This document shows positions 54,732 through 55,859 of a stretch of 64,000 bases of DNA, piece after piece; the stretch's first letter is position 1, and every line of letters begins with the position of its first letter. A model generated the notes under the pieces. The model was given only the letters and a program-made list of their open reading frames with translations, was not told the origin of the DNA and ran no database searches. The DNA is from Escherichia coli (GTDB lineage Bacteria > Pseudomonadota > Gammaproteobacteria > Enterobacterales > Enterobacteriaceae): the NCBI RefSeq assembly GCF_003334765.1, contig NZ_QOWT01000011.1, one strand, 5' to 3'. The position numbers were made by a program, and so were the translations under genes.

Positions 54732-55859
54732 TTAACGGCGTCTATAGCCTTCCTCTAGCACCGCCTGTGTTCGAACGAGTTCATCTGCGAGTCGTTTCTC
54801 ATCAGGTAGTTGCATCTTATATTCGCTTGCCAGAACGGTGTTAGGCAAACCTGCCAGAGCATAATGCGCTTCTCCGGCTCCTTTCTCTGCACAGAGAACC
54901 AGACCGATGGGCGGATTTTCATCCGGTAGCGTCCAGTGCTCTTTGGCGTAGTTGAGATACATATTCATCTGTCCGGCATCGCTATAGCTGAATTTGCCCA
55001 CTTTTAGATCGACGATTAGCAGGCAGCGTAAACGGCGGTGGAAAAACAGCAGATCGACACGAAACCAGTTGTCATCAATGCGTAACCTTCGCTGCCGACC
55101 AACAAAGGCAAAATCATCCCCAAGTTCCAGCATGAAATCCATCAGGTGGTTGATCAGCGCCTCCTCAAAATCGGATTCTGAATATTCATCTTTCAATTCC
55201 AGAAATTCGAGCACAAAGGGATCGCGTATCGCCTGTTGCGGAAGAATATGCGTCTCGGCAGGAGCGTGTTGTTGCAGCATGGCTGATTTGTCATGTGACA
55301 GTAGTGTCCGCTCATAAAACTGGGTCGCAATTTGCCGCTCTAGCTGGCGAACAGACCAGCCACAGCGGAGCGTCTCTTTTTCATAAAAGCTGCGGGCGTC
55401 AGCGTTTTTAACGGAAAGTAAACGGACGTAGGTGGACCTGGGCAAGGGGAAAGATTTGGCAGACAGCGTCTGCCAAATCTTTGCCGATGGGAATTCTGCA
55501 GACGGTGTCTGCGGAATTCCCAATGGTGTTAATTCGCCAGACATTGTCTGGCGAATTTCAACATGTTGAAAAAAGAGGTAAAAAAGCCTCATTTGGCGTA
55601 AGTTTTTTGCAGAGAACCCACGCTTATACCTTAGACATAAATCCTTTGATAGTCGCTTGATTAGCTGCGCACCATACGCAGCCCTGGCCTCGCCACCTTG
55701 TTCAAATTCGACAATTCGTCGGCCAATTTCCTGGTACGTCGCGGTCATTAACGCGTTAACGCTACGTACCGTTTCCGTCCGGGCGCTATCGACCAGATGA
55801 ATAATACCGTCGTGGATTTGCTGGTAGCCTGCTGTGGTTCCTTCTGAGAGCGATTCCAT
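54732..55859 (-). CDS. yhcG: DUF1016 N-terminal domain plus PD-(D/E)xK-type putative nuclease, uncharacterised
   Basis: 375 aa ORF with DUF1016-like N-terminus (...YGAQLIKRLSKDLCLRYKRGFSAKNLRQMRLFYLFF), then WSVRQLERQI...YERT and a C-terminal nuclease-like region (IVDLKVGKFSYSDAGQMNMYL). Confidence 0.85.
   Translation of the reverse strand: MESLSEGTTAGYQQIHDGIIHLVDSARTETVRSVNALMTATYQEIGRRIVEFEQGGEARAAYGAQLIKRLSKDLCLRYKRGFSAKNLRQMRLFYLFFQHVEIRQTMSGELTPLGIPQTPSAEFPSAKIWQTLSAKSFPLPRSTYVRLLSVKNADARSFYEKETLRCGWSVRQLERQIATQFYERTLLSHDKSAMLQQHAPAETHILPQQAIRDPFVLEFLELKDEYSESDFEEALINHLMDFMLELGDDFAFVGRQRRLRIDDNWFRVDLLFFHRRLRCLLIVDLKVGKFSYSDAGQMNMYLNYAKEHWTLPDENPPIGLVLCAEKGAGEAHYALAGLPNTVLASEYKMQLPDEKRLADELVRTQAVLEEGYRRR
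55451..55557. repeat. Three tandem near-perfect palindromes (CAGAC-N3-GTCTG core) embedded in-frame within yhcG
   Basis: aagatttggcagac-agc-gtctgccaaatctt (55451-55481); gggaattctgcagac-ggt-gtctgcggaattccc (55489-55521, one arm mismatch); aattcgccagac-att-gtctggcgaatt (55531-55557). Confidence 0.9.

Follow-up and report, generated by a model that had tools for sequence, protein, structure and literature searches.

The question raised by this 64,000-nucleotide stretch of Escherichia coli DNA (contig NZ_QOWT01000011.1 of RefSeq assembly GCF_003334765.1; hereafter, the window) is why the coding sequence of its yhcG gene should carry three consecutive palindromes while its reading frame stays intact. 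Three tandem in-frame palindromes with the common core CAGAC-N3-GTCTG were described in a first-pass annotation made from the letters of the window, and this description holds: the units lie head to tail at start-to-start spacings of 39 and 39 bp (13 codons each), i.e., as a tandem repeat whose period is a multiple of three, and they are read without stops in the 375-aa minus-strand open reading frame (ORF), in which they encode Q104-T-M-S, Q117-T-P-S, and Q130-T-L-S. The core CAGACNNNGTCTG occurs five times in the window against an expectation of 0.05, and none of 100 shuffled sequences reaches that count. The reading favoured here, at a probability of roughly 45%, is that the array is the amplified form of an ancient, position-fixed palindrome that would act in cis as a DNA hairpin or cruciform, with the nuclease encoded by the gene itself as its possible partner.

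A palindrome at one position in DUF1016/YhcG genes

In RefSeq genomes with identical DNA the gene is annotated as yhcG. Residues 19–184 of its product match DUF1016_N (Pfam PF17761, E = 1.3e-36) and residues 208–360 match YhcG_C, a PD-(D/E)XK nuclease domain (Pfam PF06250, E = 1.6e-56), in the domain order of a DUF1016/YhcG family gene. The array had initially been placed between the DUF1016-like N-terminal region and the WSVRQLERQI segment; its actual position is inside DUF1016_N, the 137 model positions of which are stretched over 166 residues in the YhcG of the window.

A protein search against 1.84 billion cluster representatives returned 21,241 relatives, and the family is present on 518 plasmids. 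The DNA was sampled at 80 viral-contig loci, 80 loci from named bacterial or archaeal genomes, and a few others, and a non-redundant set of 151 DUF1016/YhcG genes of 29–66% identity was used that spans bacteria, archaea, and viral contigs. Among the best 150 relatives, the motif Q-T-x-S-[GADE] is present in 60, one to four times each and at roughly equivalent positions, and an alignment of the stretch from 'FYLxYP' to 'LSWSHY' contains one to about eight units, with the minimal members having a single unit directly before LSWSHY. The longest hairpin of a gene, in a sample of 66 from viral contigs, usually has its centre exactly 12 nt upstream of the LSWSH codons, with perfect stems of 8–15 bp whose sequences differ wholly from gene to gene (e.g., CAATTTGCCAGACACTGTCTGGCAAATTG, CAATTGCGTCCGCAGTGCGGACGCAATTG, CAATTGTCGTATCACTGATACGACAATTG, and AAATTTTCCACTCACCGAGTGGAAAATTT). 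In the non-redundant set, a perfect linker stem of at least 7 bp is present in 117 of the 151 genes; nucleotides 240–360 of the gene hold 118 of the 139 stems of at least 8 bp, and most of the 31 weak genes retain 8–11 of 12 pairs at the same site. Similarly, homologues from Rhodococcus, Curtobacterium, and Rhizobium, at about 30% identity, have 14-, 11-, and 8-bp versions with the core CAACA...TGTTG. Judging from these alignments, one palindrome unit is an ancestral, near-universal, and position-fixed part of DUF1016 genes, and the proposal that a small element was inserted into the yhcG of E. coli gives way to one of inheritance with the gene.

In other genomes the palindrome is seldom found outside the query gene. 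Flanking matching copies were found at 3 of 108 loci only, all of them explained by paralogues or frameshifted genes, by which general flanking copies in the style of repetitive extragenic palindromic (REP) sequences and their associated tyrosine transposases (RAYTs) were ruled out. High-scoring sites outside the query gene are DUF1016 paralogues or pseudogenes, except at three loci, where family-type palindromes lie outside any DUF1016 ORF (L164, 4564–4589; L078, about 2444; L106, about 7705); these orphans may be relics of lost genes. The L164 copy, AATTGTGAACACACGTGTTCACAATT, has the end of an hsdS-like ORF on one side and a Fic-like gene on the other, which we take to be such from recognised motifs in their translations, and it is of the type found in the genes of L057 and L059, unlike its neighbouring DUF1016 gene. 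It was also observed that adjacent paralogues and frameshifted remnants are common among DUF1016 genes, and that each of them has a palindrome of its own at the same position (L135, 3736 and 9464; L146, 8125; L011, 105; L080, 1720). Besides the linker palindrome, one subfamily (L067, L068, and L072–L075) has a second, G+C-rich perfect palindrome, TCGAGGCGGCGCGCAAGCGCGCCGCCTCGA, near the N-terminus (about nucleotides 18–27), with 12–14-bp arms that encode IEAAR(K/L/Q)RAAST.

Symmetry of the DNA and drift of the peptide

With synonymous codons permuted, the longest linker stem averaged 5.4 bp instead of 9.7 bp, and in 99 of 148 genes the natural stem exceeded those of all 20 permutations. A census at a fixed axis, 12 nt before the anchor, gave a bimodal result because many genes have longer linkers; selection by left arm and centre was used instead, in which 50 linker units were chosen by a left ATT and the centre CA[CG]TG alone, blind to the right arm. 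All 50 have 5–7 of the seven unselected pairs, and occurrences of the same pattern elsewhere in 1.3 Mb mostly have 0–4. The paired cells amount to 95.1% in these units versus 72.7% after shuffling (a level reached in 0 of 500 shuffles) and 20–47% in slid registers, and double-sided changes number 143 against 39.9 expected. Three or four Watson–Crick types occur at each of the seven variable positions, which are 90–100% complementary between the arms, and the right-hand AAT, which was not selected for, is invariant. Position by position, 95–100% of cells pair over n1–n7 and about 71% at n0, with a fall to background past n12; this fits an 11–12-bp stem whose invariant C·G closes a 3-nt loop. 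The unit can accordingly be described as about 25–29 bp of DNA with a near-invariant centre CA(C/G)TG, a conserved outer AATT, and some seven positions per arm that are free but complementary.

Of 113 strong units, 105 have their axis of symmetry on the first position of a codon, and in this commonest frame the peptide reads [I]-x-Q-T-x-S-[G/A]-[K/E], in a loop directly before the conserved 'LSWSHY' helix. In other frames the element is translated quite differently, as EFARQCLTNL from GAATTCGCCAGACAGTGTCTGACGAATCT in L040, as EFATQCVANS from GAATTCGCTACACAGTGTGTAGCGAATTCG in L137, and as NLTDGVCQI from AATTTGACAGACGGTGTTTGTCAAATT in L036; the palindrome of L040, AATTCGCCAGACAGTGTCTGaCGAAT, is nearly the E. 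coli unit, with proteins only 35% identical. The constraint is thus one on the DNA, strand-symmetric and held by changes on both arms, with the encoded peptide largely a passenger and the DNA symmetry kept more faithfully than the peptide. The comparison of orthologues that had been suggested at the outset came out in favour of a nucleic-acid element, since orthologues preserve the palindrome by substitutions in both arms and differ in their peptides.

At the level of RNA, the three strong adjacent hairpins that had been anticipated in the yhcG transcript are indeed predicted: the sense-strand fold has –69.6 kcal/mol, against –30.9 ± 3.6 kcal/mol for shuffled sequences (z = –10.6). Through such hairpins translation could be attenuated, the transcript stabilised, or a protein bound, attenuation and protein binding being the roles first proposed; however, an RNA hairpin follows necessarily from any perfect DNA palindrome, and the signature expected of a selected RNA is missing. 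Among 1606 helix cells, 1549 are Watson–Crick, 19 are A·C, and only 4 are G·T; all mismatches together (29 G·T, 46 A·C, and 124 others) match the random-mismatch expectation with no excess of G·T wobble, and there is thus no preference for G·U-type pairs. At the centre, 76 units have C and 61 have G; neither strand is preferred, contrary to a strand-specific RNA loop, and the orphan copies in E. coli (described below) are symmetric in intergenic DNA between convergent genes. Tolerance of G·U and a strand-specific loop, as expected of a structured cis-regulatory RNA, are therefore both lacking. Moreover, a terminator and promoter scan gave nothing at the hairpins, none of the five copies in the window is followed by the T-run of an intrinsic terminator, and an Rfam search at E ≤ 10 returned only chance microRNA-like matches and no family for the hairpins. 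A role in the mRNA is consequently rated as quite improbable, and a protein-binding site on the DNA, rather than on the mRNA, is possible. As a side observation, the alternation of C and G at the centre yields Leu or Val codons across the family.

A protein could also bind the element as ordinary duplex. In this alternative, a homodimeric regulator (YhcG itself or a host factor) would occupy a symmetric double-stranded operator and serve as a roadblock or operator for yhcG expression; the two-fold symmetric conservation of the centre and outer positions and the strand symmetry of the element are as expected for such a site, and enzymes of the PD-(D/E)XK superfamily are commonly dimers on symmetric sites. 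Positions that a dimer does not contact need no complementarity, yet the seven variable ones are 90–100% complementary, and a single dimer would meet three different arm sets within one E. coli gene, where the arms of the three units are GCC, CGC/TGC, and TGG. Both facts make recognition of the duplex by one dimer unlikely, and the operator is regarded as improbable, though somewhat less so than a function in the mRNA.

Unit expansion, orphan copies, and breakpoints in E. coli

The features of the locus are collected in the following table.

Table. Coordinates of yhcG, its palindromes, and related features in the window
Feature	Position	Strand	Description
yhcG coding sequence	54732..55859	minus	375 aa; from the ORF list, Pfam, PADLOC, and RefSeq annotation
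Palindrome unit 1 (protein order)	55531..55557	minus	AATTCGCCAGACATTGTCTGGCGAATT; perfect 13-bp arms, 1-nt centre; encodes EIRQTMSGEL (Q104)
Palindrome unit 2	55488..55522	minus	15-nt arms with one mismatch (C·A, sense strand); core 55492–55518; encodes GIPQTPSAEF (Q117)
Palindrome unit 3	55447..55485	minus	18-nt arms with one mismatch; perfect 15-bp stretch 55450–55482; encodes AKIWQTLSAKSF (Q130)
78-bp segment	55443..55520		2 × 39 bp, 26 codons; in the window, missing from O157:H7 yhcG (alignment and gene lengths); CAA microhomology at its bounds
Orphan palindrome A	54692..54716		ATTCTGCAGACACTGTCTGCAGAAT; perfect 12-bp arms of unit-2 type; intergenic, 15 bp beyond the yhcG stop, between convergent nanQ (yhcH) and yhcG
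Orphan palindrome B	61831..61855		ATTCGCCAGAC-ACA-GTCTGGCGAAT; 11-bp arms of unit-1 type; intergenic, 15 bp beyond the gltD stop
Block between A and B	54717..61830		7.1 kb: yhcG, yhcF, yhcE, yhcD, yhcA, gltF

Copy number differs between strains, as in a variable-number tandem repeat (VNTR). K-12-type strains have three units in tandem. The yhcG of O157:H7 encodes 349 aa and has one palindrome unit, unit 1 of the window, and it is shorter than the window gene by exactly 78 bp, or two units; since one strain has one unit and the other three, the array is a 39-bp in-frame tandem expansion and not a recent insertion. The earlier suggestion of a local in-frame duplication is borne out to this extent, and the extra residues lie in a loop predicted to be disordered. 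In the AlphaFold model of YhcG (mean predicted local distance difference test score, pLDDT, 81), residues 97–125 are coil with pLDDT 41–48, and the last unit (residues 126–136), which adjoins the conserved helix equivalent to 'LSWSHY', forms a short helix running into it; the additional units would thus amount to added loop. The array has matches in 3945 of 5426 complete E. coli genomes, 3414 of which cover at least 80% of it. Its units are 70–78% alike, and the 39-bp register was found by a repeat finder; the divergence of the units kept the array out of the output of Tandem Repeats Finder. The gene is one of the six length-typing loci of the lineage-specific polymorphism assay (LSPA-6) of E. 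coli O157:H7, in the consulted typing papers of which yhcG is handled as amplicon length alone, with the repeat and the palindrome undescribed; its length alleles can be understood as the addition or removal of 39-bp palindrome units. The yhcG amplicons are reportedly 472 and 394 bp (Yang et al. 2004), and allele 2 is presumably the form that is 78 bp longer.

A search for further copies of the core, as had been recommended, gave two more in the window (A and B), and no dispersal was seen, as a short-query search located the palindrome at 2–4 places per E. coli genome (median 2), all at the yhcG locus and none in unrelated genes, which rules out a dispersed E. coli repeat family. Invasion of yhcG and nearby intergenic sites by an in-frame selfish mobile palindrome, of the Rickettsia type or a miniature transposon, would account for the tolerance of the element within a coding sequence, for near-identical copies at three places inside 7 kb, and for a gene block bracketed by two of them. 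Nevertheless, the low copy number, the same codon position across phyla, the prevalence of one frame, the near-confinement of outside copies to DUF1016 paralogues and pseudogenes, and a length far below the 100–150 nt of the Rickettsia elements (PMC4316617) all speak against it, leaving this explanation scarcely credible.

The two orphan copies are each palindromic and differ from one another on both arms (TGC/GCA in A versus GCC/GGC in B). Between K-12-type strains and O157:H7 (L001, 750–775), copy A differs in the centre base only, ACT versus AGT, as would be the outcome of a flip of the whole palindrome or of a free centre base. The 7.1-kb block between A and B has no annotated integrase, nor was one found nearby in the window. 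In 947 of the 5426 genomes nanQ, a single palindrome, and gltD occur without the block, and about 1290 more match the half with B and gltD only; in strains DFS.1 and MS20659, for example, the single palindrome between nanQ and gltD is flanked on its left as A is and on its right as B is. The positions given for the single-palindrome arrangement are 4001–4029 in L167 and 4001–4029 in L168. O157:H7 has copy A and yhcG without copy B and the fimbrial block, and there are at least three common haplotypes of the locus in E. coli, namely an empty one, one with yhcG only, and one with yhcG plus the yhcA-F/gltF block. Moreover, two independent strains have junctions at unit 3: a rearrangement junction lies at unit 3 (window 55454) in strain 2014C-4587 (L002, about 1500), with a transposase beside a C-terminally truncated yhcG, and the insertion sequence (IS) IS1 lies at unit 3 (window about 55475) in strain 19SZHZ886Rt (L003, about 1536), beside an N-terminally truncated yhcG. 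The palindromes of E. coli therefore coincide with structural breakpoints, namely unit gain or loss, block edges, and IS junctions, and they mark a site of structural variation in this species.

Two further observations concern the gene and its surroundings. Many models of the PADLOC candidate defence family PDC-S02 (see below) and many database proteins are fragments that end at about residue 100–113 or start at about 90–150, i.e., at the palindrome, which could reflect real breakage of the gene or breaks in assembly or gene calling due to the palindrome. In addition, a 94-aa ORF (61432–61716, minus strand) lies between gltF and palindrome B, where no gene is annotated in the RefSeq strain compared.

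Possible function and relation to known systems

In the favoured reading, a single ancient palindrome, intrinsic to DUF1016/YhcG genes, would have been amplified in-frame in 39-bp steps, and what the element needs would be complementarity of its arms and no particular arm sequence. Its action or its maintenance would depend on intrastrand pairing, in the form of a single-stranded DNA hairpin or of an extruded cruciform, because complementarity is kept and pairing starts at the C·G that would close a 3-nt loop. The conservation of the centre and outer positions in every frame suggests a protein reading them, and the palindrome would then be a cis-acting site for a structure-specific protein. 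The candidate reader is the PD-(D/E)XK nuclease of the gene itself, in autoregulation or self-recognition, as the product of the gene is the only partner that always co-occurs with the element; such self-recognition or autoregulation is ranked as the likeliest single mechanism, albeit a putative one. Positions 54735–55859 of the window match the candidate defence family PDC-S02 (E = 2.8e-131), for which survey mentions only were found in the literature. The nuclease domain of YhcG resembles the NucS/EndoMS, Bax1, and Can2/Card1 nucleases; the substrates of NucS/EndoMS and Bax1 are branched or distorted DNA, and this likeness of fold makes the nuclease a plausible reader and lends the self-recognition idea indirect support. 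No solved structure of a relative was found by sequence search. The more specific proposition, that DUF1016/YhcG genes carry a cis-acting hairpin or cruciform of their own, which the encoded candidate phage-defence nuclease recognises for self-regulation or for marking and protecting its own locus, is put forward as a tentative and rather doubtful extension.

The strongest competitor is a palindrome that maintains itself and has no adaptive role. An ancestral quasipalindrome would have been trapped in a stretch that cannot be deleted, as it joins the LSWSHY helix; template switching in replication would copy or revert changes between its arms, and amplification and breakpoints would be by-products of hairpin slippage. 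Strand-symmetric, wobble-free Watson–Crick arms are exactly what DNA copying predicts; A and B are intergenic and perfectly palindromic yet different on both arms, by which symmetry is seen to be kept without any coding constraint; and quasipalindromes of E. coli are documented hotspots of template-switch mutation (PMC7202029). On the other hand, self-maintenance leaves unexplained why the CA(C/G)TG centre and the outer AATT are conserved in all three frames, why the element persists from Archaea to Actinobacteria despite the deletions and IS insertions that it attracts, and why it survives with a completely different peptide, a survival from which it follows that the peptide is not tightly constrained. 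This non-adaptive account is therefore possible but on balance unlikely.

Several points weigh against a functional cis-acting structure. With 11–15 bp, the arms are rather short for extrusion of a cruciform, and template switching alone, without any function, could give perfect wobble-free arms. The conservation of ATT as Ile, CAG ACN as Gln-Thr, and TCT as Ser could in part be protein-level selection in the dominant frame, and the rarity of outside copies means that there is no general set of external target sites. A homologue on a Tenacibaculum plasmid (L173; 26% GC, 28% identity with YhcG) lacks stems of 7 bp or more over the whole length of the gene and has a short linker (…EIAFTIPWGQN), which is possibly a natural loss of the element. 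Finally, no mosaicism was detected between the N- and C-terminal halves of the proteins (half identities r = 0.82; 7 of 577 close pairs discordant, the C half being always the more conserved); domain shuffling at the palindrome, which had been considered, is thus unsupported, and the absence of mosaicism argues against a role in recombination at the scale of the family.

Coding sequences are normally read as constrained by their protein, whereas here 25–29 bp of a very widespread family (more than 21,000 cluster representatives) are apparently constrained by the symmetry of the DNA: the peptide drifts and even switches frame while the palindrome stays. The palindrome offers an experimental handle on an uncharacterised nuclease family, as well as a natural system for the persistence and both-arm evolution of perfect palindromes. 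If the favoured reading is true, part of a protein sequence would be dictated by DNA structure and not the reverse, in a self-referential pair of gene and site extending from Archaea to Actinobacteria.

The length polymorphism of yhcG is already known as a typing marker; apparently new are the palindromes behind it and the conservation of the unit throughout the family: no description of the palindrome was found in the literature on yhcG and DUF1016, and a proteobacterial survey of inverted repeats covered non-coding repeats only, with coding ones excluded. With in-frame minisatellites and VNTR typing loci, the array has in common a head-to-tail 39-bp repeat, lineage-variable copy number, and a preserved frame; unlike them, its unit is itself palindromic and conserved far beyond the species. 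The quasipalindrome hotspots of E. coli (PMC7202029) share inverted repeats perfected by arm-to-arm copying, a plausible route to the symmetry, but they are described as hotspots of mutation in arbitrary genes, whereas the yhcG element has been conserved at a single site in one gene family across vast evolutionary spans.

REP sequences, together with bacterial interspersed mosaic elements (BIMEs) and RAYT genes, are alike in being short palindromes tied to one nuclease-type gene and in having similar copies near that gene. They are extragenic, number hundreds of copies, and flank the RAYT gene, whereas the yhcG palindrome is inside its gene, in-frame, and not dispersed; of the five window copies, three are in coding sequence. 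A different parallel is the integron attC site and other structure-defined recombination sites of single-stranded DNA, in which conserved ends, a variable middle, and maintained complementarity likewise imply folded DNA. The attC sites are imperfect, have functional extrahelical bases, lie between cassettes, and are used by the integron integrase; the yhcG element, in contrast, is perfect and inside a coding sequence, with no nearby integrase in the window and no signal of cassette-like exchange across the family. In E. coli, two copies of the palindrome do border the 7.1-kb block that 947 genomes lack.

The nearest analogue is provided by the Rickettsia palindromic elements (Ogata et al. 2000, 2002, as described in PMC4316617), which are multi-copy and lie in many unrelated genes and RNAs of one genus. 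Common to both are palindromic DNA carried in-frame in an intact ORF and a tolerated passenger peptide. The differences lie in length and in distribution: unlike the Rickettsia elements, which are dispersed in this manner at 100–150 nt each, the yhcG element is 25–29 bp long, has 2–4 copies per genome, keeps to one family and one codon position across bacteria and archaea, and is inherited with its gene.

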